Below are positions 18,418 through 35,345 of a stretch of DNA of 53,945 bases, piece by piece. The translations under genes and the position numbers were made by a program. The notes below the pieces were generated by a model. It did no database searches, was not told the DNA's origin, and worked only from the letters and a program-made list of their open reading frames with translations. Location of the stretch: positions 1-53,945 of the forward strand of contig JBAPNE010000059.1 in NCBI GenBank assembly GCA_049278975.1, written 5' to 3'. Every line of letters begins with the position of its first letter. Positions within the stretch are counted from its first letter, which is position 1. This DNA is from Candidatus Kryptoniota bacterium (GTDB taxonomy: Bacteria; Bacteroidota; Ignavibacteria; Kryptoniales; JAKASW01).

Positions 18418-21171
18418 ATGAAGCCGGAAGAAGAAGCTCGAAGAATAATTGATGATTTACTTTCGGGGGCGGGCTGGGCAATTCAGGACTATCGCAAACT
18501 GAATCTTGGCGCTTCGCTTGGCATCGCAGTTCGAGAATTCCCCACGAAGACCGGTCCCGCTGACTATGTCCTCTTCGTAGATCGCAAAGCAGTTGGAGTG
18601 ATAGAGGCAAAGCCGGTCGGCACAACATTGAGCGGTGTTGCCGAGCAGTCGGCAGATTACATGAGCGACATGCCGGAAAACATTCCTCATATCCAGTTGC
18701 CCCTCCCATTCGGTTACGAAAGCACCGGCAAAGAAACTTTCTTCCGAGACATACGAGACCCTGACGCACGCTCGCGCCGGGTGTTTGCGTTCCACAAGCC
18801 GGAGACACTTGCTGAGTGGATTTCACAAGACGATACGCTTCGAGGAAGATTAAGGAATCTTCCGGAGCTAACGAAGGATAAATTGCGCGACTGCCAGTTC
18901 GAGGCAATTACGAATCTTGAAGAATCGTTCAGGGAGTCGAGGCCGCGTGCGCTAATTCAAATGGCGTCTGGAAGCGGTAAGACATATACTGGAGTAAGTT
19001 TCATCTATAGGCTCATCAAGTACGCGAACGCAAAGCGGGTTCTCTTCCTTGTTGACCGCAACAATCTTGGAAGGCAAACGAAACGAGAATTTGAACAGTA
19101 CATTACTCCGGACGACGGCAGGAAGTTTACTGAACTTTATAACATTCAACACCTCACGTCAAACACTATCGACCCCGTGCCCCGTGTTTGCATAACGACA
19201 ATCCAGCGACTCTACTCCATGCTGAAAGGCGAAAAAGAGTTCGACCCTGAAGCAGAGGAAGCTTCTCTGTTTTATTTAGCTCCACCTAATGGTCAGCCTA
19301 AAGATGTTGCATATAATCCTGACATTCCAATTGAGACGTTCGATTTCATAGTAACTGATGAATGCCATCGGTCAATTTACAATCTCTGGCGGCAGGTGCT
19401 GGAGTATTTTGACTGCTTCCTAATCGGGCTGACAGCAACACCATCGAAGCAGACGATCGGCTTTTTCGACAAGAACCTCGTAATGGAATATAACCACGAA
19501 CGCGCCGTCGCTGACGACGTGAATGTGGGATACGATGTCTATCGCATCCGCACAGACATCACTGAAAAGGGAAGCAAGGTGGAGGCAGGCTTCTATGTTG
19601 GCAAGCGCAATAAAAGAACACGCGAGACAATATGGGAACAGCTCGACGATGATTTCACATATCAATCGAACCAGCTTGACCGCGATGTGGTCGCGCCCGA
19701 CCAGATACGCACGGTTATTAAGACTTTCAAAGAGAAGCTGTTCACCGAAATATTTCCGGGACGGAAAGAAGTTCCGAAGACGCTGATCTTCGCCAAGGAT
19801 GACTCTCACGCCGAGGAGATAGTTCATATTGTCAGAGAAGAATTCGGGAAAGGCAACGATTTCTGCAAGAAGATCACGTACAAAACTCCAGGAGAGAAGC
19901 CGGAGGAATTGATACAGAGCTTCCGTAACTCGTTCTATCCTCGAATCGCAGTCACGGTCGATATGATAGCAACGGGAACCGACATCAAACCGCTTGAGTG
20001 CATTATCTTCATGCGCGATGTGAGATCGGTTGTCTATTTTGAGCAGATGAAAGGCCGTGGCACAAGAGTGATCGATTCAAACGATTTTCAGGCAGTCACT
20101 TACGACGCGAAGAATAAGACGCACTTTGTCGTCGTGGACGCTGTTGGAGTCTGCGAGTCCGACAAGACAGACAGCAGACCGTTGGAGAGAAAGCGAACGG
20201 TGCCGTTCGAGAAACTGGTCCAGTCCATCGCAGTTGGCGTCAGGGATGAAGACACCATCTCATCTCTTGCCGGTCGGCTCGCGCGATTGGAGCGAGAAAT
20301 AGGAGATCAAGATAGGAAAGAAATAGAAAAGCTTTCAGGCGGGAAAAGCATAAGAGAAATTGTGAACTCCCTTCTGGATGCGATTGACCCTGATATTCAA
20401 ATAAAACATGCAAAGCAGGAATTCAAAACTGACACTCCAACCGGCGAGCAATTGAAGAAGTCGGGAGAGCAGCTTGCCGCGAGAGCCTGCCTCCCGTTCG
20501 ATAATTCTTCTCTCCGCGAGACCATCATCGAGATACGAAAACGAAACGAGCAGGTCATAGACAGAGTGAGCGAAGACAAGCTCATCTTTTCTGGATTCGA
20601 CGAGAATGCGAAGGAGAAGGCAAAGAGCACAATTGAGACGTTCAAGAAGTTTATTGAAGATAACAAGAATGAGATTGATGCGCTTCAGTTGATATACAGG
20701 AAACCTTATGGCCAGCGACACCTGACATACGAGATGATAGAGAATCTAGCGGCAGCGATAAGAAAGCCGCCGTATCGTCTGACGGAAGAAGTGGTGTGGC
20801 ACGCTTATGAACAGCTTGAGAAATCTAAAGTTCGCGGGGCCGGTCCGGCGAAACTCATGACCGACATTATCGCATTGGTGCGCTACGCCATTGGAGCAAG
20901 CGATGTGCTTGAGCCGTTCCCTGAAATGGTTGAAGAGAAATTCAAGCGATGGATTGCGAGGCAGGAAGAGCAGGGACGTGAGTTCAAGCTGGAAGAGATG
21001 GCGTGGCTCACCATGATAAAGGACCACATCGCAACGTCCGCCGTTATCGGATGGGATGACTTCGACAACATTCCGTTCAGCGACAAGGGTGGAAGGGTTA
21101 AGGCGTACCAAATATTCGGAGACAAGTTGGAAGGCATCATGGTCGAATTGAATCGGGAGCTGGTGGCGTGA
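18418..21171 (+). CDS. hsdR: Type I restriction enzyme R subunit (EcoEI-like, with the C-terminal EcoEI_R_C-type domain)
   Basis: N-terminal PD-(D/E)xK nuclease region GPADYVLFVDRKAVGVIEAKPVG. Helicase motif I is MASGSGKT and motif II is VTDECHRS. The long helical C-terminal domain is typical of EcoEI-type HsdR. hsdS and hsdM lie downstream. Confidence 0.9.
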   Translation: MKPEEEARRIIDDLLSGAGWAIQDYRKLNLGASLGIAVREFPTKTGPADYVLFVDRKAVGVIEAKPVGTTLSGVAEQSADYMSDMPENIPHIQLPLPFGYESTGKETFFRDIRDPDARSRRVFAFHKPETLAEWISQDDTLRGRLRNLPELTKDKLRDCQFEAITNLEESFRESRPRALIQMASGSGKTYTGVSFIYRLIKYANAKRVLFLVDRNNLGRQTKREFEQYITPDDGRKFTELYNIQHLTSNTIDPVPRVCITTIQRLYSMLKGEKEFDPEAEEASLFYLAPPNGQPKDVAYNPDIPIETFDFIVTDECHRSIYNLWRQVLEYFDCFLIGLTATPSKQTIGFFDKNLVMEYNHERAVADDVNVGYDVYRIRTDITEKGSKVEAGFYVGKRNKRTRETIWEQLDDDFTYQSNQLDRDVVAPDQIRTVIKTFKEKLFTEIFPGRKEVPKTLIFAKDDSHAEEIVHIVREEFGKGNDFCKKITYKTPGEKPEELIQSFRNSFYPRIAVTVDMIATGTDIKPLECIIFMRDVRSVVYFEQMKGRGTRVIDSNDFQAVTYDAKNKTHFVVVDAVGVCESDKTDSRPLERKRTVPFEKLVQSIAVGVRDEDTISSLAGRLARLEREIGDQDRKEIEKLSGGKSIREIVNSLLDAIDPDIQIKHAKQEFKTDTPTGEQLKKSGEQLAARACLPFDNSSLRETIIEIRKRNEQVIDRVSEDKLIFSGFDENAKEKAKSTIETFKKFIEDNKNEIDALQLIYRKPYGQRHLTYEMIENLAAAIRKPPYRLTEEVVWHAYEQLEKSKVRGAGPAKLMTDIIALVRYAIGASDVLEPFPEMVEEKFKRWIARQEEQGREFKLEEMAWLTMIKDHIATSAVIGWDDFDNIPFSDKGGRVKAYQIFGDKLEGIMVELNRELVA

Positions 21172-21320: not shown

Positions 21321-21890
21321 ATGCCACGGTACTTCAAATACGCCAAAGGCTCGATTGACAAAGCCAGAAGACTCCGCCGCGCGATGACGGACGCGGAACG
21401 TAAGCTATGGTCGAAGCTGAGAAACGAACAGCTTGGCGTCCAGTTCAGAAGACAAGTCCCCGTCGGTCCTTACATAGTGGATTTTATTTGCATCAAGCGA
21501 GGGCTTGTCATCGAAGTGGACGGCGCTCAGCACTACACCGATGAAGGAATGGAATACGATAAGATTCGCACAACGTATCTGGAGAATGAAGGACTGACCG
21601 TAAAACGGTTCGGTAACCACGACGTGCTGACGAATATTGATGGAGTGGTACGGGAAATACTGGAGTTGCTGGAGAAGCAGGAAATCCGCAAACCTCATCC
21701 TGTCCTTCCCCTGTTAGGGGAAGGAACGAGTTCGCAACCAGCAGAGGAAACCCACTCTTCTGAGGATGAAAACACAAAAACAAACCGTCCCCTGTTAGGG
21801 GAAGGGACGAAATCTTCAAAGTCAAAGAGAGTCCCTGGTAGAGTTCCTGAAATAAACTGTCCCCCTAAAAGGGGGACCACAGGGGGTTGA
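21321..21890 (+). CDS. DUF559 (Vsr-like fold) endonuclease-domain protein with a repeat-derived C-terminal extension
   Basis: ARRLRRAMTDAERKLWSKLRNEQLGVQFRRQVPVGPYIVDFICIKRGLVIEVDGAQH...KRFGNHDV is the typical DUF559 core. Residues after about 120 (PLLGEGT twice, then PPKRGTTGG) are translations of the CCCCT..AGGGG palindromes. Confidence 0.8.
   Translation: MPRYFKYAKGSIDKARRLRRAMTDAERKLWSKLRNEQLGVQFRRQVPVGPYIVDFICIKRGLVIEVDGAQHYTDEGMEYDKIRTTYLENEGLTVKRFGNHDVLTNIDGVVREILELLEKQEIRKPHPVLPLLGEGTSSQPAEETHSSEDENTKTNRPLLGEGTKSSKSKRVPGRVPEINCPPKRGTTGG
21705..21725. repeat. CCTTCCCCT-gtt-AGGGGAAGG palindrome (family copy 2), inside the 3' part of the DUF559 ORF
   Basis: Perfect 9-bp arms with a 3-nt loop, followed by aacgag as in copy 1 (aacgta). 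Confidence 0.8.
21861..21888 (+). repeat. 28-nt direct repeat, right copy, ending at the DUF559 stop codon
   Basis: See 21290-21317. It contains the palindrome CCCCCT-aaa-AGGGGG. Confidence 0.7.
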
Positions 21891-21987: not shown

Positions 21988-24210
21988 ATGAAAATCAAAC
22001 TGGTCAAAGACTGGGACACAGGGATTCAACCACCAATCGGCAAATCAAAAGTGAAAGGACACTTTGCCGGAAGGAAAGATGAAGTAAGCAAGTTGACTAA
22101 TGATCTCCTCAATAGGGAAGAAGGCGCGATTTTGATCAGTGGCTACCGAGGTGTGGGAAAGACTTCCTTTGTTTACAAATGTCTATCGAACGCGCTAGTC
22201 AACGAAAAGGGTGCTCTCGTAGTCCTTCTCAATGCGCCCCAACTACAAGACGACGACGGTAAGGTTGTTAAGAATCTTATTCGTCGACTTTACTCGGCAA
22301 TCAAAAACGAAGATACCGTTAAAAGAAACCTTAAAGAAGATCTCGAAACCTTATATAGAAAAGCGGTCTCAAAGGAGTTCAGTCTCCAACAAGTTTTTCA
22401 AAAGCAGGCTGAGATGTCGGTTTCATCTAACAAGGAACAAGGAATCGATATCAGTATTTCCGAAAGAGATTGGAGAACAATTGTACTAATCACTTCTTGG
22501 TCATTGGCCATGATATTGCAGCTCTTTCCTGCCACAGACTGGAGTTGGTTTAACAAAATTGTTCCATTGCTACTTGCCCTACCTGTTCCTTTTGGATTTA
22601 GTCTCTGGTATAAAAAGAAGAAAGTTAAGGAAGAAAAGAAAAGTCTGTTCGGATCAGCTAAAGAGCTTTACGAATTTGACAACAGCGCGGGTAATTTAGA
22701 GTCGGATTTGCGTGATCTTCACGAGCAGTTGTATAATGGCGGACACAAGGTTGTATATGTGATAGATGAGTTGGATAAGTTGGCGAATGCTCAAGCAGCG
22801 TTAGACATCTTCAGCAAGCTAAAGAATCTCTTCACTCTTTCGAAAGCTCTTTTCATTATCATCGGCGATGAGGAACTGTATAGCAAGGCTAGCGTGAAAA
22901 CGAGTTCGCAAAATGGTTTTCGGGCAAAAGAATACACATACTTCACTCATAAGTATTTCATTGCGAGACCTTCATGGACTGACCTAAGTGATTATATCGA
23001 TGAAATAGTTGACAAGAAGGAGATTGACGAACCTAGTTACAGCAATTTAAAGCATGCATTGCTTTTTGAATCTCAAAACGATTTCTTTGACCTTCTTGAA
23101 AGGATTAGAGACAGGATCACTTCTTATGATGGTCGTCAACCCGTAATTGAGTTCGAAGCGCTCTCAGACGAGGATGTCAAGAAAGCAAAATTGCACAAGG
23201 CAGTCGTCTTAGTATTCGAAGAGAAATACAAAAGCGAAATGATTTCAAAATGGCAGGAGAACGAACTAATCATTCGCCATCTTCTCGCACATGCGAAAGG
23301 GATTGCAGAAGACTATGTTGGGTTCGAGATTCAAGATGGTCAATCAATAGATATGTTGGACTCAGCAAAGAGGAACTTTAATGGACTGCTTTCGCGAATC
23401 GGAGCGTTGACCGTGATTCAAGAAGATACCTGCAACGTGAGTGGATCGTCCGTCCGAGTAAATAAATACAGATACGAAGGTTTGGTGCCGCGAGACCCAC
23501 CGAAACACTTAACTGAACCCAGCGAACTGGAGCTAAAATTTCTGGATGCTTTTGGGCGATATTGCGATTACATCGTGTCAATTATCAACTCATTTCATAT
23601 TCCAACCGGAAAGCCAACACTTTCGAGACATGAACTGCTTGAACATCCGACTGAATATCTTGAAGAATTGAGATCTCCACAAACAGATGTGAGTAATCCA
23701 TTCAGTAGCGGGCGAGAAATTTATCTTAACCTGACCACCAAACTGCCGCCCACAGTTTACAAAAGAGACCAGATAGAGCAAGCCACATCGAATGTCTTGA
23801 ATCAAACCAAAAACCTTCTTGCCAACATTCGATTGATCTTTATGCATATGATTAAAAGGTTCAATTCCAATGAATTACAGGATCAGTTGCTTTCATCAAA
23901 CAATAACTTGTTTGTGGGCTCGGCTCAGGAGATCAGAAATTTCCTAGGAGCTTTTCAACATATCGTCGTCTTTAAGCGCGACTTATCAAAGCAACTATTG
24001 ATTCTTGAAAAGACTGATGCTAGCGGCGAGAAGATTCGGCAGGTACAGGGAATCATATTGACACTCACAGACAAATTCATGATTTTAGTGATCGGTGCCG
24101 GTGCTAAACCTATTGATGACGTTTTGAACGTAACAACTGATTCTCCTGACGAATTGCGGAAGACAGGGATGGATGCGGTGGGCCAAATAAGAGACTTTTT
24201 CGGGCTCTGA
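21988..24210 (+). CDS. P-loop NTPase with two TM helices inserted between Walker A and Walker B (KAP-like topology) and a C-terminal region of about 470 aa with no recognised motif
   Basis: FAGRKDEVSKLTNDLL...AILISGYRGVGKTSFV carries Walker A (22141-22167). The hydrophobic segments TIVLITSWSLAMILQLF and IVPLLLALPVPFGFSLWY (22474-22611) are followed by KKKKVKEEKK. Walker B is VVYVIDELDKL (22750-22776). The stop TGA shares one base with the hsdS ATG. Confidence 0.75.
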   Translation: MKIKLVKDWDTGIQPPIGKSKVKGHFAGRKDEVSKLTNDLLNREEGAILISGYRGVGKTSFVYKCLSNALVNEKGALVVLLNAPQLQDDDGKVVKNLIRRLYSAIKNEDTVKRNLKEDLETLYRKAVSKEFSLQQVFQKQAEMSVSSNKEQGIDISISERDWRTIVLITSWSLAMILQLFPATDWSWFNKIVPLLLALPVPFGFSLWYKKKKVKEEKKSLFGSAKELYEFDNSAGNLESDLRDLHEQLYNGGHKVVYVIDELDKLANAQAALDIFSKLKNLFTLSKALFIIIGDEELYSKASVKTSSQNGFRAKEYTYFTHKYFIARPSWTDLSDYIDEIVDKKEIDEPSYSNLKHALLFESQNDFFDLLERIRDRITSYDGRQPVIEFEALSDEDVKKAKLHKAVVLVFEEKYKSEMISKWQENELIIRHLLAHAKGIAEDYVGFEIQDGQSIDMLDSAKRNFNGLLSRIGALTVIQEDTCNVSGSSVRVNKYRYEGLVPRDPPKHLTEPSELELKFLDAFGRYCDYIVSIINSFHIPTGKPTLSRHELLEHPTEYLEELRSPQTDVSNPFSSGREIYLNLTTKLPPTVYKRDQIEQATSNVLNQTKNLLANIRLIFMHMIKRFNSNELQDQLLSSNNNLFVGSAQEIRNFLGAFQHIVVFKRDLSKQLLILEKTDASGEKIRQVQGIILTLTDKFMILVIGAGAKPIDDVLNVTTDSPDELRKTGMDAVGQIRDFFGL

Positions 24211-25661
24211 TGGAAAGCCCGTCTAACGTGGAACATTGCCTGCCGAACGGTTGGGTGCGTACAACCCTCGGTAGTGTGCTTAGTTTCGTAAAAGGGAAAA
24301 AGCCTTTGAATCTTGGAAGCAAATTAGACAATAGCTTCCTTCCATACGTCAACATTGAGGCATTTGAAAAAAAGATACTTTCGCAGTACGCCAGGGCTGA
24401 TGGCCATCCAACATGTAACAAAGACGATGTATTAATTGTCTGGGACGGCGCAAGATGCGGATTGGTCGGAAGAGGTGTTGATGGAATAATAGGATCAACT
24501 CTTGCAAAGCTTCCTTACGACGAAATGGACGGTTCGTTCATCTTTTATTTCCTGCAATCGAAATATAATTTGATAAACAAGAGACCAAGGGGTGTAGGTA
24601 TCCCTCATGTTGAACCAAATCTATTCTGGAGCATCGTTTTTCCTCTTCCTCCACTTCCCGAGCAGCATCGCATCGTCGCGAAGATAGAAGAGCTGTTCTC
24701 CGACTTGGACGCGGGCATCGAGGCGCTGAAGAAAGTCAAAGCTGAACTGAAGCGATACAGGCAATCAGTGCTCAAGGCAGCCGTGGAAGGAAAACTCACT
24801 GCTCCATGGCGTGAGGCTAACAAAGGGAAGGTGGAGCCCGCGGCGGTACTTCTTGAGCGAATACGAGCGGGACGAGATTCTGTAAGGGCACGGCATGCCG
24901 TGCCCCAACGACAGGCAAAAGACCTTCCACCAATCGATACGTCCGAGTTGCCAAAGTTGCCGGAAGGGTGGGAGTGGACAAGAGTTGGTACGGTTGCCGA
25001 GACGTGCCTGGGGAAGATGCTTGACAAGGTGAAAAACAAAGGTGAGTATCAACCATATCTCCGCAACATAAATGTTCGATGGGGAGGGTTTGATCTAAGC
25101 GATTTGAGTCAAATGAAGTTTGAACAAGATGAAGAACAAAGGTATGGGTTGCTCCATGGCGACCTCGTTGTGTGTGAAGGTGGAGAACCGGGGCGAGCCG
25201 CTGTCTGGACTGGTACACCCGGCATGAAGATTCAAAAGGCGCTTCATCGAGTTCGCTTTGTGGCAAATACCGTGACGGCCGAATTCCTCCAATCTTACTT
25301 GGAACACGCTGCCAAAAACGGAATCTTGGAGAAATATTTTACTGGAACCACCATTAAACACTTCACCGGAGTCAGACTGGCTGAGTTTGTTCTTCCGTTG
25401 CCACCATGCCAAGAGCAACTTCAAATCGTCTCCGAAGTCGAGCGGCGACTCTCGGCTGCCGACGAAGTAGGGACATATTGCGATATGTCCCTACGGCAGG
25501 CGGAACGGTTGAGGCAGAGCATTTTGAAAAGGGCGTTTGAAGGGAAGTTGGTGCCGCAGGACCCGACGGATGAACCTGCATCGGTTTTATTGGAGAATAT
25601 AAAGAGGAAAAAAATAGAAGAAAAAGCGATAAAAAGTTCAAATAAAAGAGGTAAAAAATGA
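24210..25661 (+). CDS. hsdS: Type I R-M specificity subunit with two target-recognition domains
   Basis: Two TRDs are separated by conserved helices: LPPLPEQHRIVAKIEELFSDLDAGIEALKKVKAELKRYRQSVLKAA and LPPCQEQLQIVSEVERRLSAADE...RQSILKRAFEGKLV. Confidence 0.9.
   Translation: MESPSNVEHCLPNGWVRTTLGSVLSFVKGKKPLNLGSKLDNSFLPYVNIEAFEKKILSQYARADGHPTCNKDDVLIVWDGARCGLVGRGVDGIIGSTLAKLPYDEMDGSFIFYFLQSKYNLINKRPRGVGIPHVEPNLFWSIVFPLPPLPEQHRIVAKIEELFSDLDAGIEALKKVKAELKRYRQSVLKAAVEGKLTAPWREANKGKVEPAAVLLERIRAGRDSVRARHAVPQRQAKDLPPIDTSELPKLPEGWEWTRVGTVAETCLGKMLDKVKNKGEYQPYLRNINVRWGGFDLSDLSQMKFEQDEEQRYGLLHGDLVVCEGGEPGRAAVWTGTPGMKIQKALHRVRFVANTVTAEFLQSYLEHAAKNGILEKYFTGTTIKHFTGVRLAEFVLPLPPCQEQLQIVSEVERRLSAADEVGTYCDMSLRQAERLRQSILKRAFEGKLVPQDPTDEPASVLLENIKRKKIEEKAIKSSNKRGKK
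24886..24905. repeat. Perfect 20-nt palindrome GGGCACGGCATGCCGTGCCC inside hsdS, read in frame as ARHAVP
   Basis: Read directly from the sequence. A sister copy lies at 27159-27178 in hsdM. Confidence 0.9.
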
Positions 25662-25858: not shown

Positions 25859-26992
25859 ATGGACTTCAAAGAGTTCACAGCCGGAACGTACACTCAACAG
25901 TATCAGTACAAGAGCTTCGGCCCATCAACGATAAATCACGAGTGGACGTGGTCTGATCCTAAAATCAATATCCTCCTAGCCGATGCCAGTCGAAAATTGG
26001 GTGAACTTAACGCCTTTGCAGCGTCGGTTCCTGATGTCGACATTTTCGTAAGGATGCATGTGGCGAAAGAAGCGACCAAGTCGAGCGCAATCGAAGGGAC
26101 AAGAACCGAGATCGAAGAGGTTGTTTTGCAGGAACAAGATGTTCTTCCAGAGAAGCGAGACGACTGGAATGAAGTCCAGAATTATATCTCCGCGATGAAC
26201 ACTGCCATTGAACGGCTGAAAGAAATGCCGCTCTCCACCAGAACGTTGAAGGAAACTCATCGTACGCTACTCCAGGATGTCCGGGGAGAACACAAGACTC
26301 CAGGCGAATACCGCACAAGTCAGAATTGGATCGGCGGTGCAACGCTGGATGATGCAACGTTTGTCCCACCTCATCATTCTGAAGTCAATGCGTTGATGGG
26401 TGACCTTGAAAATTTTCTTCACAATCCGAACATCGATGTTCCGAGACTGGTTAGAATTGCGATAGCGCATTATCAGTTTGAAACTATTCATCCGTTCCTC
26501 GACGGCAACGGGAGAATCGGTCGGTTATTAATAACGCTTTATCTTGTGAGTGAAGGGCTTCTCTCTAAACCGACTCTCTATCTCTCTGACCATTTAGAAA
26601 GACACAAGACTTTATATTATGACAATCTCATGCTTGTCAGAACTCGGAACGACATAGGCCAGTGGGTGAAGTTCTTGCTCGCCGCCGTAATGGAGACCTG
26701 CGACAAAGGAATTGAGACCTTCAGAAAAATACTCAAACTGAAAGATGAAATTGAAGGCAATAGGCTTGTGACTCTCGGCAGGAAAACGAAGATTGCGAAG
26801 TCCTTCTTGAATCATCTTTACAGTAATCCTGCTACCGACGTTGCGAGGGTGAAGGAAGTTCTGAACTTGAGTCAAGCATCGGCGAATTCGCTTGTGGCGG
26901 ACTTTGAAAGGCTCGGGATTCTTAAAGAAATCACTGGGTTCAAGCGCAACAGGTACTTTCTGTTTTCGGAATACATAAACCTCTTCAAATAG
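25859..26992 (+). CDS. fic: Fic-domain protein (AMPylase-type) with an N-terminal inhibitory-helix motif and a C-terminal wHTH-like region
   Basis: Fic motif HPFLDGNGRIGR (26489-26524). An SxxxEG motif, SSAIEG, lies at about 26081-26098. The stop is 9 nt before the hsdM ATG. Confidence 0.9.
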   Translation: MDFKEFTAGTYTQQYQYKSFGPSTINHEWTWSDPKINILLADASRKLGELNAFAASVPDVDIFVRMHVAKEATKSSAIEGTRTEIEEVVLQEQDVLPEKRDDWNEVQNYISAMNTAIERLKEMPLSTRTLKETHRTLLQDVRGEHKTPGEYRTSQNWIGGATLDDATFVPPHHSEVNALMGDLENFLHNPNIDVPRLVRIAIAHYQFETIHPFLDGNGRIGRLLITLYLVSEGLLSKPTLYLSDHLERHKTLYYDNLMLVRTRNDIGQWVKFLLAAVMETCDKGIETFRKILKLKDEIEGNRLVTLGRKTKIAKSFLNHLYSNPATDVARVKEVLNLSQASANSLVADFERLGILKEITGFKRNRYFLFSEYINLFK

Positions 26993-27001: not shown

Positions 27002-28471
27002 ATGTCTAATGAATCATCCACGATAGTTCAGCGTCTCTGGAACTACTGCAACGTCCTCCGCGACGACGGCGTAAGCTATGGCGACTACGTCGAGCAGTTG
27101 ACGTATCTCCTTTTCCTCAAGATGGCTGATGAACAAACGAAGCCGCCATTTCGTGTCGGGGCACAGCATGCTGTGCCCATACCAGATGGTCTCGACTGGG
27201 AAAGTCTTATCAAGAAAGACGGCGACGAGCTTGAGGTTCATTACCGACATGTCCTCGATTCTCTCGGCAAGGGATCTGGAATGCTTGGCGTGATATTCAG
27301 AAAATCTCAGAATAGAATTCAAGACCCTGCCAAACTTAAGAGGCTTGTCGAATTGATCAACGATGAGACCTGGATGGGTTTGGACGTCGACATTAAAGGT
27401 GAGATTTACGAAGGCTTGTTGCAGAAGAACGCTGAAGACGTGAAGAGTGGCGCGGGACAGTATTTCACTCCGCGACCGCTGATTAAGGCCATGGTTGATG
27501 TCACTCGTCCTGAATCCATGATGACAATTTGTGACCCCGCATGTGGGACCGGTGGCTTTTTCCTTGCCGCACACAATCACCTTGAGCACAAGCAGCTCGA
27601 CAAGAAACAGAAAGATTTCTTGAAGGCAAAGACTTTCAAAGGCTGGGAGATTGTAGATAGCGCGGCAAGGCTTTGCGTAATGAATCTTTACCTCCATGGC
27701 ATCGGAGGTGAAGAGAGTCCGATTACCGTAGCTGACAGTTTGGCATCGGAACCAAGCGAGCACTTCGATACTGTCCTAACAAATCCGCCTTTCGGCAAGA
27801 AGAGCAGCATCACGATAGTGAATGGAGAAGGAAAGGCCGACAAAGAATCCATCATGTATGAGAGGCAGGACTTTTGGGCTACGACTTCCAACAAACAGCT
27901 AAACTTTCTACAGCACGTGAGATCGCTTCTAAAACAAAATGGGAAAGCAGCAATCGTCGTTCCCGATAATGTTCTCTTTGAAGGCGGTGCAGGCGAGACA
28001 GTCAGGAGAAAGTTATTGCATGATTGCGACGTGCATACACTCCTTAGACTTCCGACTGGTATTTTCTATGCACAAGGTGTGAAAGCAAACGTACTTTTCT
28101 TCGAGAGAAAGCCCGCCAGCGAAAAGCCATGGACTGAGAAACTCTGGATATACGACTTGCGAACGAACACACATTTTACTTTGAAAACGAACACCCTCAA
28201 GTACGAAGACCTCAAAGATTTCATAGACTGTTACAATTCGGACAACCGTCGAGATCGTAAGGAATCCGAGCGGTTCAAAGTATTCACGTATGAAGAGCTT
28301 ATGCAGCGCGATAAAGCCAGTCTCGACATATTCTGGCTGAAGGATGACAGCCTTGAAGACTCCGCGAATCTACCCGACCCCGATGTAATTGCGCAAGACA
28401 TCGCAGAAAATCTTGAGGCTGCGTTAGAGCAGTTCAAGAGCGTTAGGGAAGGACTAGAGAACGGGAAGTAG
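27002..28471 (+). CDS. hsdM: Type I R-M N6-adenine DNA methyltransferase subunit
   Basis: HsdM N-terminal domain LWNYCNVLRDDG...YVEQLTYLLFLKMADE. AdoMet motif DPACGTGGF and catalytic motif TNPPFG. Confidence 0.92.
   Translation: MSNESSTIVQRLWNYCNVLRDDGVSYGDYVEQLTYLLFLKMADEQTKPPFRVGAQHAVPIPDGLDWESLIKKDGDELEVHYRHVLDSLGKGSGMLGVIFRKSQNRIQDPAKLKRLVELINDETWMGLDVDIKGEIYEGLLQKNAEDVKSGAGQYFTPRPLIKAMVDVTRPESMMTICDPACGTGGFFLAAHNHLEHKQLDKKQKDFLKAKTFKGWEIVDSAARLCVMNLYLHGIGGEESPITVADSLASEPSEHFDTVLTNPPFGKKSSITIVNGEGKADKESIMYERQDFWATTSNKQLNFLQHVRSLLKQNGKAAIVVPDNVLFEGGAGETVRRKLLHDCDVHTLLRLPTGIFYAQGVKANVLFFERKPASEKPWTEKLWIYDLRTNTHFTLKTNTLKYEDLKDFIDCYNSDNRRDRKESERFKVFTYEELMQRDKASLDIFWLKDDSLEDSANLPDPDVIAQDIAENLEAALEQFKSVREGLENGK
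27159..27178. repeat. Perfect 20-nt palindrome GGGCACAGCATGCTGTGCCC inside hsdM, read in frame as AQHAVP
   Basis: Read directly. It differs from the hsdS copy only at the symmetric pair G..C versus A..T, so the palindrome is preserved. Confidence 0.9.
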
Positions 28472-28530: not shown

Positions 28531-29233
28531 TCAGTCCGTCAACGTAAGTGAGCTTGAAAGCGTGCCGGAATACTTAACCGGTTTGCCCGCCGCATCGAGG
28601 GTCAGCAGCGCCAGTAGGATTGTCCTACCGGAGTAGCTTCCAATGCTCGCCGCATCCTGACCCGACAACGCGATGTTGAAGGTGAGTGCGTTGTTGAGAT
28701 CAACCGGCTTCGAGTCCGACGTTCCCGATGCGAACAGGAACTCAGGATAGGTCTCGTTCGAAGGGTTCGTCAGGCTCAGCACGTAAGCCATCTTAGCGTT
28801 CGGCTCTTTAGTTACGTCGATGCCGGCGGCACTTCCAATCGTCGCCATCGCGACCGCTATGGCGTTTCCCGTAAGGCTTGCGCTGGTGCAGCTGACCCCG
28901 AAGCTGTGCTCAGGGACTATCGTCGTAAGGTCGGAGACCGAGCTTGGGTTCACGATCAGGATGTTTTCCTGTACCATGAAATTGAACGTTGTCATCCCGC
29001 TTGGTGTCAGGGGCTGCCAAAATCCGGCAAGCTCGGGGACGGAATAGATCGCCTGAGCGAGCTTGGCCGAGAACTTGAAACGGGCCCTTCGGTCTATCGA
29101 CCCCCTGGTCGTCGGGGGGAGCGTAGCGGCCTGGCCGCGTCCCCACGAAGTTCTTGCCGTTGCGTTGGCGGAATACAGTGTCGCCGATTCTTCCGCTGAA
29201 TCTGCCGAGTACGGCTTTTGTTAGTTCTGCCAT
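28531..29233 (-). pseudogene. Frameshifted gene (about 234 aa if repaired) resembling the Bacteroidota DUF6266 type of hypothetical protein
   Basis: The two minus-strand ORFs 28910-29233 and 28531-28995 are in different frames. My translation upstream of 28995 continues as ...LPPTTRGSIDRRARFKFSAKLAQAIYSVPELAGFWQPLTPSGMTTFNF. The frames meet at a 6-nt homopolymer (plus-strand G6, 29114-29119), and deleting one base joins them. The N-terminus is LGRFSGRIGDTVFRQRNGKNFVGTRP. Confidence 0.55.
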
Positions 29234-29642
29234 TGAAATTGTCCTTTCATTTTGTTTTGTAATGGCAAATTAGTTAATTAGTTACAGAGCGAGTCAGTGC
29301 GGATGCATCTCTTCGTGAGAGGCGCCATGGAGCATCTCATTTCCGGGAAGCAGGCTCAACCGAGAGATAACCGGGAGATAGCCGAGAATGAAGCGTCGGC
29401 TCTCTGTGCGCTGACTTCGTTTCTCTGAATATTATTACTCACTACTAAACATATTTTGCCATTAACAAATATTTTTTCCCGACGGCAAAATCGGGCTTTT
29501 TGTGAGTAATAAGTAGTAGAAGAAGCATGAAGGTAAATTTGATACATACTTATGAGAATTCACTATGGTGCGCTTCTAAAACGTAGGAGGACAGAAATGA
29601 CACTCAGACAAATTGATTTCGCAGTAAAATCAGGGAGTGAAA

Positions 29643-30305
29643 ATGGGGACAGAGGATGATTGTAAAAAAATAGGGCTTATTGAAAGTTTCGTAAGAGATA
29701 AAAATAGACTTGAGAAGGTTGTTGCAATAGCGGAAAGGCTGTTGAGATGGAATGAAGACGGCAGCTCTTGTAGCTATGGAGAGTCTGAACGGGCAGTGAC
29801 CGCAGAATGTATCGTGCATGAACTGGTGGCTGATGCTTTGTGCGGAACCCGTAAATGGAATATTAAAGAAATGCCGGAATTTGACGGCTGGATAATAACC
29901 CAATTAAAAAGCAAGAAATGGAATCTTGTTCGTGAGCTGCTTCGCCCTTTGCCTTCTAAAAGAAAGGCTAACAACGAAGAGGCTACCGACGATCCGGACG
30001 AAAATTATTTCAGACCGACTGTTTCTTTACAAGAGGAGATCGAGAAAAATGGGTTTGATCCGCCCGGCGATCATGACTACGTCCGAGATTACGAGGATGA
30101 TGAATTTGTCAAGGTTTTGAAACGTGAACTTGAGGGCCGGGTAATCGACTACTTTGTGCTTGAGGGAGTATTAGATAAACAAGGTAACATAGAAATCGCT
30201 TCTGATTTGAAAATAAAAGTGAGTGAGGTCGTGAATGCCAAAAAGAGAGTCGGTCGAGTGATCGACGAGTTGAAAAGAGGAAGAAGCAACGATCGTTCGA
30301 AATGA
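29643..30305 (+). CDS. Divergent sigma-70-family (ECF-like) protein
   Basis: Region-2-like AECIVHELVADALCGTRKWN...FDGWIITQLKSKKWNLVRE and region-4 HTH-like YFVLEGVLDKQGNIEIASDLKIKVSEVVNAKKRVGRVIDEL. A gggag RBS precedes the ATG at 29643; the ORF track starts at GTG 29637. Confidence 0.5.
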   Translation: MGTEDDCKKIGLIESFVRDKNRLEKVVAIAERLLRWNEDGSSCSYGESERAVTAECIVHELVADALCGTRKWNIKEMPEFDGWIITQLKSKKWNLVRELLRPLPSKRKANNEEATDDPDENYFRPTVSLQEEIEKNGFDPPGDHDYVRDYEDDEFVKVLKRELEGRVIDYFVLEGVLDKQGNIEIASDLKIKVSEVVNAKKRVGRVIDELKRGRSNDRSK

Positions 30306-30700
30306 GTCTGCACGTCTTGGAGATCGACCGGTTTAAAAGTTAGAACAAATAATCAGCAAGAAGAAAAGGACAAACGCTTAATATCTTATGAAGGTACCTA
30401 TGACTAGTATTTCGGTATCTTCGTTCCAGAGGCCGTTATGAGGAGCACGCTGTCAGTTAGTAGGTTTATCGTCTCATCTTATCATGACACCAACGAAGTT
30501 GTGTCTAAGAGAATTTGTGGTACACCGCTTTTCCCTGCGTATCTATTCTATCCTATAGATAAGTATTTCCTTCTCAGGAAGCCGTCTGGAAAAATAAGAC
30601 TCGGAACTTTGCATCAAAGAAGGTTAAGATGGCACATGCCCGGGACGGAAATGCTGATAAAACTTGCCATGTGTTTTAAGAATTAATCAGGCAATAAAAT

Positions 30701-31093
30701 ATGGAGGAACAAATGGACCGAGAAGCTTTCATGGATTTCTACTTGGACAACAGCGATGAAGATCCGGAGTATATTCATGAGTATCTCGTCAAGGAAGGTA
30801 TTGATATCGATGGGCTTCAAGCGAGGTTGTTGGAGTTGATTGCAAAACGTAAGGCCGAACAAAAGTTGGTGGAAGGGAAAAAGTTCAAATCAGCATATGA
30901 GGAGATGAAGCGGAAAGCGGATTCAATATTTGGAAAGAAAGTCAGCGAGGAAGTGAACACAACAGCAGTTGCTTACAGGAAACACCAAGGGGAATCTGAA
31001 GAGGATGCAACGGAAAGTGTTGATGACGCTAAAAAGTTAGCAATGATTAAACAGGCGAAGGAATCTTTATCTAATGGAAAGAAGGCAAAGTGA
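30701..31093 (+). CDS. Hypothetical acidic/Lys-rich helical protein (130 aa)
   Basis: A clean ORF with a ggagg RBS (aatatggaggaacaaatg). No motif was recognised. Confidence 0.5.
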   Translation: MEEQMDREAFMDFYLDNSDEDPEYIHEYLVKEGIDIDGLQARLLELIAKRKAEQKLVEGKKFKSAYEEMKRKADSIFGKKVSEEVNTTAVAYRKHQGESEEDATESVDDAKKLAMIKQAKESLSNGKKAK

Positions 31094-31134
31094 AAGTCGG
31101 AGAAGTGCGTTGTGTCCTGCGAGCCGACTACCGG

Positions 31135-31268
31135 CCATTGCGAGGAGGGCGACCAGCGAAGCGGACGGACGACGCGGCAATCTCGATCATGGCTGATGGA
31201 CGAAGGGCTTTCTATGTCCGCATCGTGGACAAGTGGAAGATGAGATTGCCTCGCTTTGCTCGCAAAGG
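31135..31268. repeat. Composite long-hairpin repeat of the CATTGCGAG...GGCAATCTC // GAGATTGCC...CTCGCAAAGG type
   Basis: The outer arms ccattgcgag (31135-31144) and ctcgcaaagg (31259-31268) match at 9 of 10 positions. The inner arms ggcaatctc (31176-31184) and gagattgcc (31242-31250) match at 9 of 9. Confidence 0.6.
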
Positions 31269-31333
31269 CGAATTCGTGGCTTATTATCCAAGCTCCGACA
31301 ATACGAGCCACGAAGGAAACAGGAAAGAAACTG

Positions 31334-32098
31334 ATGACCGCATTAGCTGAAGGAAGAGCGCGTGAGCTGCTGAACGCCTACTGTATCAAATCTCCGGAAG
31401 GACTAAAGAACTTAGATGAGATCGCGAACGCCGAGGGTCTAATAGTGGAAGACGCAGACTTAAGTAATTGCCAGGGGAAAATCGCATATGAAGAGACCAT
31501 GGGGCTTATCAAGGTAAGCACTGCTGTACGTGAGCCGGGAGCGAGAAGGTTCGTGATCGCGCATGAGATGGGACACTTCTTTAACGAGAAGTCGAAGCTG
31601 AATAGATGTGCGTCGCAAGATATGCTGCCGGTAAAGTCAAAGAAAGTCGGCGAGGACGATGCAAATGCTTTCGCCGTCGAGCTTTTGATGAAGAAGGAAT
31701 GGTACTCCGAATTCGTGAAGGACAAGGATCCGGGCATCGAAGCCATTAGAAAAGCCGCGGAATACTTCGGAGTTTCGCTCAGCGCGGCTGCAATTCGATA
31801 TTCGCAGGCAGGAAACTTTCCTGTCGCGGTAATCATGACGCATAAGCGTAAAGTGTCCTGGAGTTCAATAAGCGAACTTTTCCCGTACCAGTATGTCGGC
31901 AAACATCATCCTGTCAACAGTTACTCCGAGGCAGAAGCGTTTTATAGCGGAACGAAGGTGGACACTGCGCCTCACTCTGTTCTCGCCGACTCGTGGTTCT
32001 TAGAAGACCGCAGCTTCCGGCGAAACCATTCTCTTGTCGAGCAAATCCTGCCAATGCCGAATTATGATTCGCTGCTCGCGGTTGTGTGGGAGGGGTAG
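31334..32098 (+). CDS. ImmA/IrrE-family (DUF955/COG2856-like) zinc metallopeptidase with an unassigned C-terminal domain
   Basis: HEMGH zinc motif at 31562-31576. The N-terminal part ARELLNAYCIKSPEGLKNLDEIANAEGLIVEDADL is typical of ImmA. I chose the start at ATG 31334, which has an aggaaa RBS; the ORF track starts at 31256, inside the repeat. Confidence 0.75.
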   Translation: MTALAEGRARELLNAYCIKSPEGLKNLDEIANAEGLIVEDADLSNCQGKIAYEETMGLIKVSTAVREPGARRFVIAHEMGHFFNEKSKLNRCASQDMLPVKSKKVGEDDANAFAVELLMKKEWYSEFVKDKDPGIEAIRKAAEYFGVSLSAAAIRYSQAGNFPVAVIMTHKRKVSWSSISELFPYQYVGKHHPVNSYSEAEAFYSGTKVDTAPHSVLADSWFLEDRSFRRNHSLVEQILPMPNYDSLLAVVWEG

Positions 32099-32642: not shown

Positions 32643-33737
32643 GTGTCGGAAGACCTTATGAACGTTGCTCTTGTCTTTAACATTAAAAGAGAGAGCACCA
32701 TGGAGGCTGACGCTAATCTTATCTCTTCTCCTTCCAAAACCACCTCAACATCTCAATCGAAACTCTCCTACGAAGGAAAGGTCATCGATAAGTATGCAGA
32801 GTGGGACACCGCCGAGACGATCGACGCCGTAGCCCGCGCTTTATCGCTGTACCACGATGTTACGTTTGTTGAAGCTGACGAGAACGCCTACGACAGGCTT
32901 CGCGGCGGAGAGTTTGACATCGCCTTCAACATCGCCGAAGGGATGAATGGCGTCAGCCGGGAAGCGCAAATCCCCGCCATGCTTGAATTCCTAGGAATAC
33001 CTTATACCGGTTCCGACCCGCTTACTCTGGCAACCTGCCTGGATAAGTCAAGGACAAAAGAAATTTTGAGTTATCACAGGATACCTACTTCGAAATTTGT
33101 CGTTGCAGATTCATTTGAAGAAGCATCGAAAGCATCATTGCGTTACCCACTTTTTGTTAAGCCGCTCCACGAAGGTTCGAGCAAGGGAATCTATAACTCT
33201 TCCTATGTCGTGAACCAAGCAGCGCTCCAAAAAGAAGTTGAACGAATACTAAATGATTACGAGCAGCCCGCACTTGTAGAAGAATACTTGCCCGGGAGGG
33301 AATTCACCGTAGCACTGCTTGGTAATGGGAATGAATTGAAAGTCCTGCCACCCGTTGAAATAACTTTCGATTCACTGCCATCAGAGGCACTGCCTGTTTA
33401 TTCTTATGAGGCCAAATGGCTTTGGGATACAAAAGATTCCCCTATTGAAGTTTTCAAATGTCCGGCACCAATCAGCGATTCTCTGAACACAAAAATTGAG
33501 AATGTGTGCAGGAAGGCATTTGAAGTTCTAAATTGCCGCGACTGGAGCAGGATTGATGTGCGCCTTGATGCTGAAGGCGAGCCTAATATAATCGAAATCA
33601 ATCCGCTGCCAGGAATTTTACCAGATCCGGAAGAGCATTCATGTTTCCCGATGGCTTCGAGAGCCGCGGGCCTGGACTATGGTCAAATGATGAATGCGGT
33701 CCTAGATGCGGCAATCAAGAGAATAGGTAAGTCATAG
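32643..33737 (+). CDS. ATP-grasp ligase of the D-alanine--D-alanine ligase family (paralog 1)
   Basis: Overall Ddl-like pattern: FNIAEG..G.SREAQIPAMLEFLGIPYTGSDPLTLATCLDKSRTKEIL, PLFVKPLHEGSSKGI, EEYLPGREFTVALLGN and IEINPLPG. The start is more likely ATG 32658 (MNVALVFNIK) than GTG 32643. Confidence 0.8.
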   Translation: MSEDLMNVALVFNIKRESTMEADANLISSPSKTTSTSQSKLSYEGKVIDKYAEWDTAETIDAVARALSLYHDVTFVEADENAYDRLRGGEFDIAFNIAEGMNGVSREAQIPAMLEFLGIPYTGSDPLTLATCLDKSRTKEILSYHRIPTSKFVVADSFEEASKASLRYPLFVKPLHEGSSKGIYNSSYVVNQAALQKEVERILNDYEQPALVEEYLPGREFTVALLGNGNELKVLPPVEITFDSLPSEALPVYSYEAKWLWDTKDSPIEVFKCPAPISDSLNTKIENVCRKAFEVLNCRDWSRIDVRLDAEGEPNIIEINPLPGILPDPEEHSCFPMASRAAGLDYGQMMNAVLDAAIKRIGKS

Positions 33738-33778
33738 CTCGTAACTTATTGTGCATGTTTAACTTATAAAGGCGGCTT

Positions 33779-34873
33779 ATGTCAAGAAAATTACCACGTA
33801 GCGGAATCCAAGAGACGGGAAAAAAGCTTTGTGTTGTCTATGACGAGGCGGCGTTAGACATCAGATCGGAACTTGAATTAGCTTTTAATGGAAAACTATC
33901 TTCCGAGGCAACAGCTTCATTGATTGATACTTCCACAACGAGTGTCATCGAGCAAGTCGATACAGTGGTGTCGGTATTATCCGAAGCCGGTTATAATGTT
34001 TCGACAATCATCACAAGCTCGGATATGAAACAGCTTATCCATAAGCTTCGCGAAGAAAAACCCGACATGATCTTTAACTTCTGCGAATCTATCGAAGGTG
34101 ATTCTTTCCAGGAAATGAACGTTGCAGGTTTGTATGAGCTGCTTCGATTGCAATATACCGGAAGCAGCCCTCTCACACTTGGAAGCTGCTTGAATAAGGT
34201 GAGAACAAAAGAGATTTTAACTTTCCATAAAATAAATGTACCATCCTATCGGGTTTTTAATTCGCCCGATGAAGTGTCGAGAAAAAAAATAGGATTTCCT
34301 GCGATTGCAAAACCGATACATGAAGATGCGAGCATCGGTATTTCAAATGTTTCTGTTGTATATGATCGTGACCACTTACAGGTCTTGCTTGCCGACATGC
34401 TGAAGAAATTCAAACAGCCGATCCTTGTCGAGCAATTTGTAGATGGAAGGGAGTTTAATGTTGCGATCGTCGGAAATGATGAGGTCGTCGCGCTTCCCGT
34501 TTCCGAAATAGATTTTAGTACCATGCCTTCAGGTTTTCATCACATTGTTTCGTATGAAGCAAAGTGGATGCCCGATAGTGTGGAATACAAATCAACGGTG
34601 CCGATTTGTCCTGCAAAAATAAGTCGTCGGCTCGAACAGAAAATTCAGAATACTGCAATCAAAGCCTATCAGGCGATGAGATGCAGAGACTACGCCAGAG
34701 TTGATATGAGAGTCGATAAAACAGGAAAGGTATTCATATTGGAAGTGAATCCAAATCCTGACCTATCGCCAACCGGTTCGGGCTTTTCTAGAAGCGCCGC
34801 GGCATTCGGCTGGTCTTACAGCCAGCTCATAAATAATATTGTCCAATCAGCTTTTAAGAGAAGGCTTGGTTAG
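33779..34873 (+). CDS. ATP-grasp ligase of the D-alanine--D-alanine ligase family (paralog 2)
   Basis: Same architecture: FNFCESIEGDSFQEMNVAGLYELLRLQYTGSSPLTLGSCLNKVRTKEIL, AIAKPIHEDASIGI, EQFVDGREFNVAIVGN and LEVNPNPD. Confidence 0.8.
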   Translation: MSRKLPRSGIQETGKKLCVVYDEAALDIRSELELAFNGKLSSEATASLIDTSTTSVIEQVDTVVSVLSEAGYNVSTIITSSDMKQLIHKLREEKPDMIFNFCESIEGDSFQEMNVAGLYELLRLQYTGSSPLTLGSCLNKVRTKEILTFHKINVPSYRVFNSPDEVSRKKIGFPAIAKPIHEDASIGISNVSVVYDRDHLQVLLADMLKKFKQPILVEQFVDGREFNVAIVGNDEVVALPVSEIDFSTMPSGFHHIVSYEAKWMPDSVEYKSTVPICPAKISRRLEQKIQNTAIKAYQAMRCRDYARVDMRVDKTGKVFILEVNPNPDLSPTGSGFSRSAAAFGWSYSQLINNIVQSAFKRRLG

Positions 34874-35345
34874 GATCCGACCCACTATCCGGGAAGATCA
34901 CGGCTCTATCCTGGACATCCTGAAGAGGACAGATAATTTCACGGCAGAAGAAATAGAAATTGCTGATGAACTATTGAACACGTACTTCACTCAATCTTTT
35001 GAGAGCGGATACTGGACTTACACGGCAGCGAATGATAAAATTGCAGGCTATATATGTTACGGACCTACGCCTTTGACAGTCGGGACCTACGACATTTATT
35101 GGATCGCTGTTGATCCGGCTCTGCAGGGGAAGGGGATCGGAACTGAATTATTAAATTTTGCCGAAGACGATATATCGAAGCACAAGGGAAGGTTGATAAC
35201 GGTTTATACGAGTTCGCAGGAGAAATATTCTCTAACACGGAGTTTTTATTTCAAACGAGATTATCACGAAGGTGCGAGGATAAGTGATTATTATCGGCCG
35301 GGAGATGATCTCGTAATATATGTTAAACAAATATCGGAGGACTAA
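34839..35345 (+). CDS. GNAT-family N-acetyltransferase
   Basis: Acetyl-CoA motif A, IAVDPALQGKGIGTELLNFAEDD. The ORF overlaps the upstream gene's 3' end; an alternative TTG start lies at 34866. Confidence 0.75.
   Translation: MSNQLLREGLVRIRPTIREDHGSILDILKRTDNFTAEEIEIADELLNTYFTQSFESGYWTYTAANDKIAGYICYGPTPLTVGTYDIYWIAVDPALQGKGIGTELLNFAEDDISKHKGRLITVYTSSQEKYSLTRSFYFKRDYHEGARISDYYRPGDDLVIYVKQISED

Follow-up and report, generated by a model that had tools for sequence, protein, structure and literature searches.

A rare family of KAP-type P-loop NTPases encoded directly upstream of hsdS in type I restriction-modification operons, a candidate membrane-associated anti-phage defence

Introduction

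What is a P-loop NTPase with a pair of hydrophobic helices inside its ATPase domain doing among the subunit genes of a type I restriction-modification (R-M) operon? The question is raised by a gene at positions 21988–24210 of contig JBAPNE010000059.1 of a Candidatus Kryptoniota bacterium (assembly GCA_049278975.1), all 53,945 nt of which were analysed and are referred to here as the window. A sequence-only reading had described the gene as encoding a KAP-like NTPase coupled to hsdS and had suggested an R-M-linked defence or abortive-infection effector of a kind not recognised as described, possibly a membrane-acting backup that responds when the R-M complex is lost or inhibited. We have extended these observations by investigating the family to which the protein belongs, the genomic context of its relatives and its predicted structure. 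Relatives of this NTPase lie beside restriction-modification or other defence genes at 20 of 27 informative loci and, in type I systems, directly before hsdS at 10 of 12 loci, making the NTPase a good defence candidate.

Both halves of the claim to an undescribed kind were overtaken by published work. P-loop NTPases with inserted transmembrane helices are already known to be anti-phage proteins: Tmn, which carries two transmembrane helices inside its P-loop domain, forms a decamer, senses the T2 protein RIIB and arrests infection via ATP turnover, Mg2+ export and plasmolysis (PMC13001434), and single-gene proteins joining a KAP NTPase to a C-terminal region of unknown function defend Enterococcus against phage, in the case of EF_KAP by a protection that requires Walker B and the C-terminal region and that, according to the authors, does not involve abortive infection (PMC13552941). 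Embedding in type I R-M operons is likewise a known source of defence genes, as genes embedded in type I R-M, BREX and DISARM systems are largely defensive and more than half of them are unassigned (bioRxiv 10.1101/2024.01.29.577857), with TgvAB as a worked example (PMC11411939). Transmembrane-inserted NTPase defences and 'guilt by embedding' are thus already known; of this NTPase family and its restriction linkage no description was found in the literature searched, nor any paper combining KAP with hsdR and hsdS.

Results

The reading frame of the NTPase encodes 740 amino acids (aa) and begins at an ATG with GGAGG located 13–17 nt upstream, and both Walker motifs lie where they had been placed, Walker B following the hydrophobic helices. 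The features of the gene are the following, AF2 denoting AlphaFold2, pLDDT the predicted local distance difference test and pTM the predicted template-modelling score.

21988–24210, + strand: KAP-type P-loop NTPase gene, 740 aa, ATG start; Pfam KAP_NTPase 38 bits (cut-off 20), AAA_16 40 bits
22141–22167, + strand: Walker A, GYRGVGKTS, residues 52–60; G52, R54, G55, V56, G57, K58 and T59 invariant in 40 homologues
22477–22527, + strand: hydrophobic helix 1, TIVLITSWSLAMILQLF, residues 164–180, predicted transmembrane span; Kyte-Doolittle 1.69; AF2 helix 159–179
22558–22611, + strand: hydrophobic, proline-rich helix 2, IVPLLLALPVPFGFSLWY, residues 191–208; conserved PLLLAxPxPF motif
22612–22641, + strand: lysine-rich run KKKKVKEEKK, directly after helix 2
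22750–22776, + strand: Walker B, VVYVIDELD, residues 255–263; Y257, D260, E261, D263 and K264 invariant in 40 homologues
22945–24207, + strand: family-specific C-terminal module, residues 320–740; modelled alone by AF2 at pLDDT 91.6 and pTM 0.87

Since the residues listed for both Walker motifs do not vary across the 40 homologues, the NTPase is probably active as an ATPase. W9, D10 and several C-terminal residues, including D365, N425 and Y494, are also invariant in the 40-sequence alignment.

The KAP-like assignment was upheld, as Pfam KAP_NTPase (PF07693) scores above its curated cut-off, with residues 40–316 aligned to profile positions 11–212 of 293 and the alignment running across the hydrophobic insert; a precomputed KAP_NTPase match is present on most homologues. 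AAA_16 scores equally well (cut-off 32.6 bits), and placement inside the clan is therefore not exclusive. Relatives are few, 161 being found among 5.8 billion proteins, nearly all of about 750 aa and aligning end to end at 29–75% identity. They derive from metagenome-assembled genomes (MAGs) of both Bacteria and Archaea with a sparse, patchy phyletic spread, and the few that are named are labelled 'ATP-binding protein', 'P-loop NTPase fold protein' or 'Cdc6-like ATPase'. A phmmer search with the C-terminal part against 1.84 billion representatives returned 137 proteins at E ≤ 0.001, in which the match always starts at about residue 320–370 of a 700–900-aa protein, shorter matches having the appearance of fragments. 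As the C-terminal module turns up in this architecture only, in 137 representatives, the family is rare and of fixed architecture. Combined, these searches assign the NTPase to the KAP clan of P-loop NTPases and, within it, to a rare family without a name.

Comparison with known models did not extend this assignment. NCBIfam provides no name for the NTPase. The only PADLOC models matching the NTPase are PifA (7e-6) and mad8 (1.6e-3), both weakly, and none of the HEC/PDC models of PADLOC v2 matched. The PifA match covers the Walker A region alone (residues 45–122 on positions 39–110, 72 of 720 positions; 22.8 bits, E = 7.3e-6), a full-length PifA match not being found in PADLOC. Neither Pfam YobI nor PADLOC tmn matched at E ≤ 0.01, and the ABC-type ATPase and anticodon-nuclease domains of PrrC and RloC were not detected with Pfam or PADLOC. 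Among 72,556 plasmids and 50,697 phage records no family members were found, bar one distant NTPase-domain match.

The two hydrophobic helices followed by KKKKVKEEKK were confirmed as first described, with one small correction and one caveat. Their presence is a constant of the family and not a chance feature, the pair lying between Walker A and Walker B in 40 of 40 aligned homologues (29–75% identity) and forming the most hydrophobic part of the NTPase; the start given for helix 1, 22474, was one codon early (22477), and helix 2 proved marginal. Hydrophobicity was assessed with hydropathy scales and Hessa energies rather than a dedicated transmembrane predictor, a Kyte-Doolittle value of 1.6 being taken as the transmembrane threshold. 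Helix 1 reaches at least 1.6 in 38 of the 40 homologues, with summed Hessa energies ranging from −3.6 to +5 (+3.1 in the window protein). Values for helix 2 range from 1.0 to 2.05, about half of the homologues reaching 1.6, and its summed energies from +4 to +9. Membrane insertion is therefore a prediction by simple scales, helix 2 being marginal and helix 1 of the window protein lying just at the threshold. The pair is flanked by a short aromatic loop, DWSWFNK, and by the lysine run after helix 2, flanks which fit a cytoplasmic location of both hairpin ends. A two-span membrane hairpin is plausible on these grounds, a re-entrant or monotopic membrane association being a possible alternative.

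In the full-length AF2 model (pLDDT 83, pTM 0.74) the hydrophobic helices, at 159–179 and 186–197, are located at the tip of the long helices 113–151 and 199–231, which the model suggests form a stalk inserted in the P-loop domain with the hydrophobic helices at its end. The remainder of the protein, in which no motif had been placed, is equally devoid of matches by profile and fold. Residues 320–740 have no Pfam match even at E ≤ 10, where only noise is returned; searching the PDB sequences with the family profile gave matches to ORC4 and Cdc6 alone, confined to the surroundings of Walker A, the C-terminal part remaining unmatched; and a fold search of the C-terminal model against the PDB and BFVD returned nothing at E ≤ 0.001. 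The best weak matches to the C-terminal model are a marseillevirus ATPase (E = 0.024) and the restriction endonuclease Kpn2I (E = 0.1; probability 0.38, TM-score ~0.2). Secondary-structure order in the model suggests a lid and winged-helix-like region at about 330–500, a helical bundle at 513–625 and a terminal alpha/beta part at 630–740, residues 419–496, where helices are followed by a beta hairpin, being those that would be winged-helix-like. A nuclease reading of the C-terminal module was considered and dropped because the last domain lacks a conserved acidic/lysine triad; after residue 597 no position is 90% conserved in the 40-sequence alignment. In the PDB the whole model comes closest to BrxC of BREX (9zll_B and 9zdx_C, E ~1e-3, TM-scores 0.22–0.29), ORC/Cdc6, CED-4, plant NLRs and RdrA, all at low TM-scores; these proteins are switch-type ATPases of immunity and replication.

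Embedding of the gene in a type I R-M operon, as originally proposed, is borne out by strong Pfam and PADLOC matches to hsdR, hsdM and hsdS, all of which are present, intact and on one strand. The neighbouring features are as follows.

18418–21171, + strand: hsdR, type I restriction subunit, EcoEI/EcoAI-like, 917 aa; Pfam EcoEI_R_C 5.8e-40, ResIII 4.9e-36 and HSDR_N; PADLOC REase_I 2.4e-50
21321–21890, + strand: DUF559 (Vsr-like endonuclease fold) passenger, 189 aa; Pfam DUF559 2.5e-36; NCBIfam DUF559 2e-24, below cut-off
24208–24212, + strand: TGATG, stop/start overlap of the NTPase gene and hsdS, read directly from the sequence; TGA and ATG have one base in common
24210–25661, + strand: hsdS, specificity subunit, 483 aa; Pfam Methylase_S in two stretches; PADLOC Specificity_I 1.1e-112
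25859–26992, + strand: SoFic-like Fic/DOC passenger, 377 aa; PADLOC SoFic 6.4e-120; Pfam Fic_N and Fic
27002–28471, + strand: hsdM, methyltransferase subunit, 489 aa; Pfam N6_Mtase 7.3e-71 and HsdM_N; PADLOC MTase_I 8.1e-198

From the Pfam, PADLOC and NCBIfam reading of the gene order, hsdR-DUF559-NTPase-hsdS-Fic-hsdM, the operon is assigned as an intact type I system with three passengers. No convincing + strand terminator was found between the hsd genes in a promoter/terminator scan, which returned counts close to the shuffled expectation with a tool that lacks Bacteroidota promoters. The NTPase gene is most likely co-transcribed with the operon and translationally coupled to hsdS. Its composition (GC 41.7%, 44% at third codon positions) differs from that of hsdR and hsdM (48–49% and 55–57%, respectively), which is weak evidence for cargo as the GC content of the whole window ranges widely. 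Two other systems were excluded for this operon. MADS membership, prompted by hsdM and hsdS weakly resembling MAD2 and MAD5 and by the mad8 match of the NTPase, was rejected because all scores are far below cut-offs and a normal hsdR is present, and BREX/BrxC membership was rejected because the partner genes PglZ, BrxB and PglX are absent from the operon (Pfam, PADLOC).

The other passengers differ in their association with the NTPase gene. The SoFic-like gene, between hsdS and hsdM, is a second known single-gene defence inside the window operon, and at the locus of the closest named relative (P0002, 75% identical to the window NTPase; L166) a Fic gene is located two genes 3' of hsdS; because of this shared Fic gene the NTPase-hsdS-Fic block seems to travel together. 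The P0002 genome (GCA_023381855.1) is labelled a Thaumarchaeota/Nitrososphaerota MAG and the window is Bacteroidota-like, a mismatch which points to either recent inter-domain transfer or a mis-binned 4.6-kb contig. The DUF559 gene is missing in the relatives P0008, P0009 and P0003, in which the NTPase gene directly follows hsdR.

Genes flanking the operon include T9SS (type IX secretion system) Por_Secre_tail proteins and a bacterial DnaG primase, in keeping with a bacterial and probably Bacteroidota-like host, and small flanking ORFs are without Pfam matches. The region 3' of hsdM (28531–32098) contains small ORFs followed by a Peptidase_M78 (ImmA/IrrE-like) gene at 31256–32098 and might mark the border of a mobile or defence island; neither an integrase nor a tRNA gene was found in the window. 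Further 3', two tandem D-Ala-D-Ala-ligase-like ATP-grasp genes (32643–33737 and 33779–34873, + strand) and a lysine-2,3-aminomutase-like radical SAM gene (35349–36557, + strand) form a group at 32643–36557, perhaps a small cluster for peptide or amino-acid modification, unconnected with the NTPase.

Association with restriction genes is a property of the family. Loci were gathered by scanning genomes and metagenomes and by looking up single proteins, and neighbours were annotated with Pfam and with hidden Markov models (HMMs) built from several loci, as phmmer searches with the Hsd proteins of the window recover few hsdS and hsdM genes outside their own families. This gave 33 distinct full-length loci, six of which are on contigs too short to judge, leaving 27 that are informative. 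Restriction-modification or other defence genes are nearby at 20 of these. Type I genes are present at 12 of the 27, compared with 4 of 67 control loci from the same scans holding other P-loop NTPases (strong type I matches; Fisher p = 3e-5), a comparison that somewhat favours the family because the HMMs were built from family loci. Three further loci have type III or N6_N4 methylases (L008, L169 and L005) and five have other restriction or defence genes: L007 (Eco57I-like), L112 (HerA and DpnI), L116 (EcoO109I), L084 (Tsp45I with SLATT/SMODS) and L004 (HerA, AAA_15 and a large methylase). The remaining seven informative loci have no recognisable defence neighbour.

The type I loci occur in two unrelated operon layouts. 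In the first, R-NTPase-S-M with an EcoEI_R_C-type HsdR, are the window, P0008, P0009, P0002 and P0003; in the second, M-(small genes)-NTPase-S-(x)-R with a HindI-like HsdR, are Archaeoglobus L001/P0015, L002, P0019, L090, L089, L092 and L087. Irrespective of layout, hsdS directly follows the NTPase gene at 10 of the 12 loci, at a spacing of −4 to +24 nt, the tight coupling noted in the window thus recurring among homologues; in the remaining two (L087 and L168) the contig ends before the hsdS position is visible. The order M-S-NTPase was observed in two truncated loci outside the 33 (L105 and L119). In a neighbour-joining tree, two type I-embedded clades follow operon layout, the R-first clade also including a type III context.

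Several loci carry additional genes of interest. In the archaeal M-NTPase-S loci (L080, 7353–8004; L002, 9039–9986), small toxin-antitoxin-like genes lie between hsdM and the NTPase gene, MNT/NTP_transf_2 with HepT in the case of L080, and L002 has an OLD-family AAA_15/TOPRIM gene between hsdS and hsdR; these loci are a further case of multi-passenger embedding. HerA/DUF87 ATPase genes adjoin family members in a Promethearchaeia MAG (L004, 12365–14089) and an Anaerolineales contig (L112, 4640–6346), recalling the HerA-Orc/Cdc6 conflict systems, in which ORC/Cdc6-clade ATPases with HerA partners have been predicted to function in conflict (PMC10853773). On two metagenome contigs (L087, 3–1245; L117, 2023–3357), hsdM upstream of an intact family member is in three reading-frame fragments, reflecting either R-M decay with the NTPase kept or assembly errors.

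The closest relatives of the R-M genes themselves (hsdR, 933–1057 bits) have different genes in the same slots. An Anaerolineales MAG (L030, 8525–12847) encodes a 1440-aa KAP_NTPase-Ser/Thr kinase-FHA protein between hsdS and hsdM, and a Cyclobacteriaceae MAG (L018, 8428–11314) has an AAA_21 gene in that position and, after hsdM, an 8xMP membrane protein and a 450-aa KAP_NTPase. Since both carry other KAP_NTPase proteins, KAP-domain proteins of differing architecture appear, by these domain matches, to recur in the R-M lineage of the window.

Discussion

The question of what the NTPase contributes to the operon is best answered, in our judgement, by an autonomous, membrane-associated, co-expressed second-line anti-phage defence carried in the type I operon, a reading to which we assign about an even chance. 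The hydrophobic hairpin on its helical stalk would hold the ATPase at the inner membrane face, and the conserved 420-aa C-terminal module would be the sensor or partner-binding part. Nucleotide-dependent oligomerisation could then turn the membrane-embedded part into an effector whose output would be an ion or small-molecule leak or a Tmn- or PifA-like collapse of cell physiology, and phages which escape or inhibit restriction would be stopped by the NTPase.

Autonomy and dependence on the R-M enzyme are each favoured by different observations. Several points favour cargo: the presence of other genes in the same slots of relatives, the distinct composition of the gene, and members outside type I systems, such as P0036 (SLATT/SMODS, Tsp45I), L112 (HerA, DpnI) and L116 (EcoO109I). 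Because members occur outside type I systems, beside type III, II or IV enzymes or CBASS-like genes, strict dependence on R-M, as in the original backup or sensor idea, is argued against. Other points favour some functional tie to R-M, namely the strict site upstream of hsdS, the tolerated insertion between hsdM and hsdS and a phylogeny which tracks layout.

Three classes of known protein are relevant to this reading. The KAP fusion proteins resemble the window protein in having a KAP_NTPase domain with at least one transmembrane helix inside, a C-terminal region of more than 300 aa without known domain or structural match, and a single polypeptide located among defence genes. They differ in that EF_KAP has one N-terminal transmembrane helix and one within the NTPase domain, whereas the window protein has two adjacent helices within the domain, and in lying beside small serine recombinases (Bacillota, gut metagenomes) rather than inside an R-M operon; the C-terminal module of the window protein is confined to its own family (~137 clusters). 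Tmn shares the arrangement of two transmembrane helices, here predicted, inside the P-loop domain, and its single-gene defence, sensor arms outside the ATPase and coupling of ATP turnover to a membrane-level effect provide the parallel used above. In contrast, the window protein has another C-terminal module and no YobI/tmn match, Tmn is found in P2/P4 hotspots and not in R-M operons, and the decamer and Mg2+ export have been shown for Tmn only. PifA of the F plasmid, the founding bacterial KAP member, excludes T7. Like the window protein it is a KAP-clan NTPase, in its case tied to phage exclusion with membrane-level consequences, but the match is limited to the Walker A region of the model and PifA is reported to lack transmembrane helices.

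Embedding provides a second parallel. As for PrrC, RloC, TgvAB and the HEC/PDC genes, the NTPase gene is in operon orientation, nested between hsd genes and probably co-expressed with them, an arrangement which predicts defence and which, in the form of nesting within type I hsd genes typical of PrrC/RloC-type effectors, is found for the NTPase gene at 12 distinct loci. The proteins themselves are not homologous, PrrC combining an ABC-type ATPase with an anticodon nuclease in one protein and TgvAB being GmrSD-like. BrxC and ORC/Cdc6, the best whole-model folds, share an ATPase followed by helical and probably winged-helix modules and a tie to methylation-based immunity, but the TM-scores are only 0.2–0.45, the hydrophobic hairpin is absent from them and BREX partner genes are absent here.

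Several observations weigh against an autonomous membrane-acting defence: the seven informative loci without a recognisable defence neighbour, the marginal hydrophobicity of helix 2 together with a helix 1 just at threshold in the window protein, the failure of Pfam (E ≤ 10) and of the PDB and BFVD fold searches to reveal a recognisable effector domain, the absence of any PADLOC defence-model match beyond the Walker A region, and the strict site upstream of hsdS and layout-tracking tree, which are no less compatible with coupling to R-M than with autonomy.

The last of these observations is accommodated by a PrrC-like guard, the idea of the sequence-only reading, in which the NTPase would be silenced by contact with HsdS/HsdM and would fire at the membrane when phage anti-restriction inhibits or dismantles the R-M enzyme. 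By analogy with PrrC this is possible, and we consider it rather unlikely overall. The placement of the gene just before hsdS at 10 of the 12 type I loci, in both the R-KAP-S-M and M-KAP-S-R families, the repeated tolerance of an insertion separating hsdM from hsdS, two genes whose expression normally has to be balanced, the tracking of operon layout by the NTPase tree and the precedent of PrrC, an effector rarely encountered outside type I R-M, all speak for a guard. However, members associated with type III, II, IIG or IV enzymes, or with no R-M gene, have no common subunit to contact, similarity to PrrC/RloC was not found with Pfam or PADLOC, and L087 and L117 keep an intact NTPase gene beside a fragmented hsdM, for which assembly errors could also account. 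More generally, a dedicated membrane-acting R-M partner co-translated with HsdS, whether guarding the methyltransferase-specificity module or positioning or activating the R-M enzyme at the membrane, is a minority possibility; if true, it would represent a coupling of a KAP-clan ATPase to R-M, in Bacteria and Archaea and in two type I families, of which we found no description.

The marginal hydrophobicity of the helix pair admits a soluble STAND/ORC-like switch, in which the hairpin would be an oligomerisation or autoinhibitory element and the C-terminal module an unrecognised enzymatic effector, for example a degenerate nuclease fold. Consistent with this are the proline-rich helix 2 with its unfavourable summed insertion energies (+4 to +9) and the +3.1 of helix 1 in the window protein, an AAA_16 score as good as that of KAP_NTPase, the fold matches to CED-4, plant NLRs and RdrA, the Kpn2I match as a weak best C-terminal hit, and the existence of Orc/Cdc6 ATPases with restriction endonuclease inserts and HerA partners (PMC10853773), HerA genes flanking L004 and L112. 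We regard it as improbable: helix 1 is above the transmembrane threshold in 38 of 40 members, several with strongly negative energies, the short aromatic loop and the lysine run are as expected of a membrane hairpin, the Kpn2I match is of low probability (0.38) and TM-score (~0.2), and a PD-(D/E)xK-like conserved triad is not visible in the last domain, nothing being 90% conserved past residue 597.

The fold matches to BrxC (9zll_B and 9zdx_C, E ~1e-3) and to the DNA-loading ATPases ORC/Cdc6 could instead indicate an accessory subunit of the R-M enzyme, a BrxC/MtsA-like ATPase which would tether the complex at the membrane, at the point of foreign DNA entry, or load or regulate the methyltransferase-specificity module on DNA. 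The winged-helix-like secondary-structure order predicted at residues 419–496 and the association of the family with methylation-based systems of several types are in keeping with such a role, and there is a precedent in the MANTIS AAA+ ATPase, which is required for methyltransferase loading (bioRxiv 10.64898/2026.09.23.753747). The TM-scores of these matches are nevertheless 0.2–0.3, close relatives of the same R-M system lack the NTPase gene and have other cargo in its slot, and some members have no methyltransferase identified nearby. The type I families concerned function as R2M2S1 complexes and are not known to need extra subunits, and the BREX partners PglZ, BrxB and PglX are not present in the operon. 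An accessory subunit is accordingly doubtful. A function other than defence, such as maintenance, addiction or another role of a mobile island carrying R-M, is very improbable, as the integrase genes near some archaeal loci and the sparse, patchy phyletic spread that would suggest it are set against neighbours which are overwhelmingly restriction or defence genes rather than transfer or replication genes and against the absence of homologues, bar one distant NTPase-domain match, from the 72,556 plasmids and 50,697 phage records.

If active, this NTPase would enlarge by one family the short list of P-loop NTPase defences associated with the membrane, which at present comprises Tmn, PifA and the KAP fusion proteins. 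Its value as a test case lies in a confidently folded putative sensor/effector module without structural match, present in Bacteria and Archaea, and the consistent address directly upstream of hsdS offers a clean system for asking whether embedded genes share only regulation with an R-M enzyme or communicate with it. The family is also an example of 'guilt by embedding' extending to families whose rarity in RefSeq has kept them out of current defence databases.

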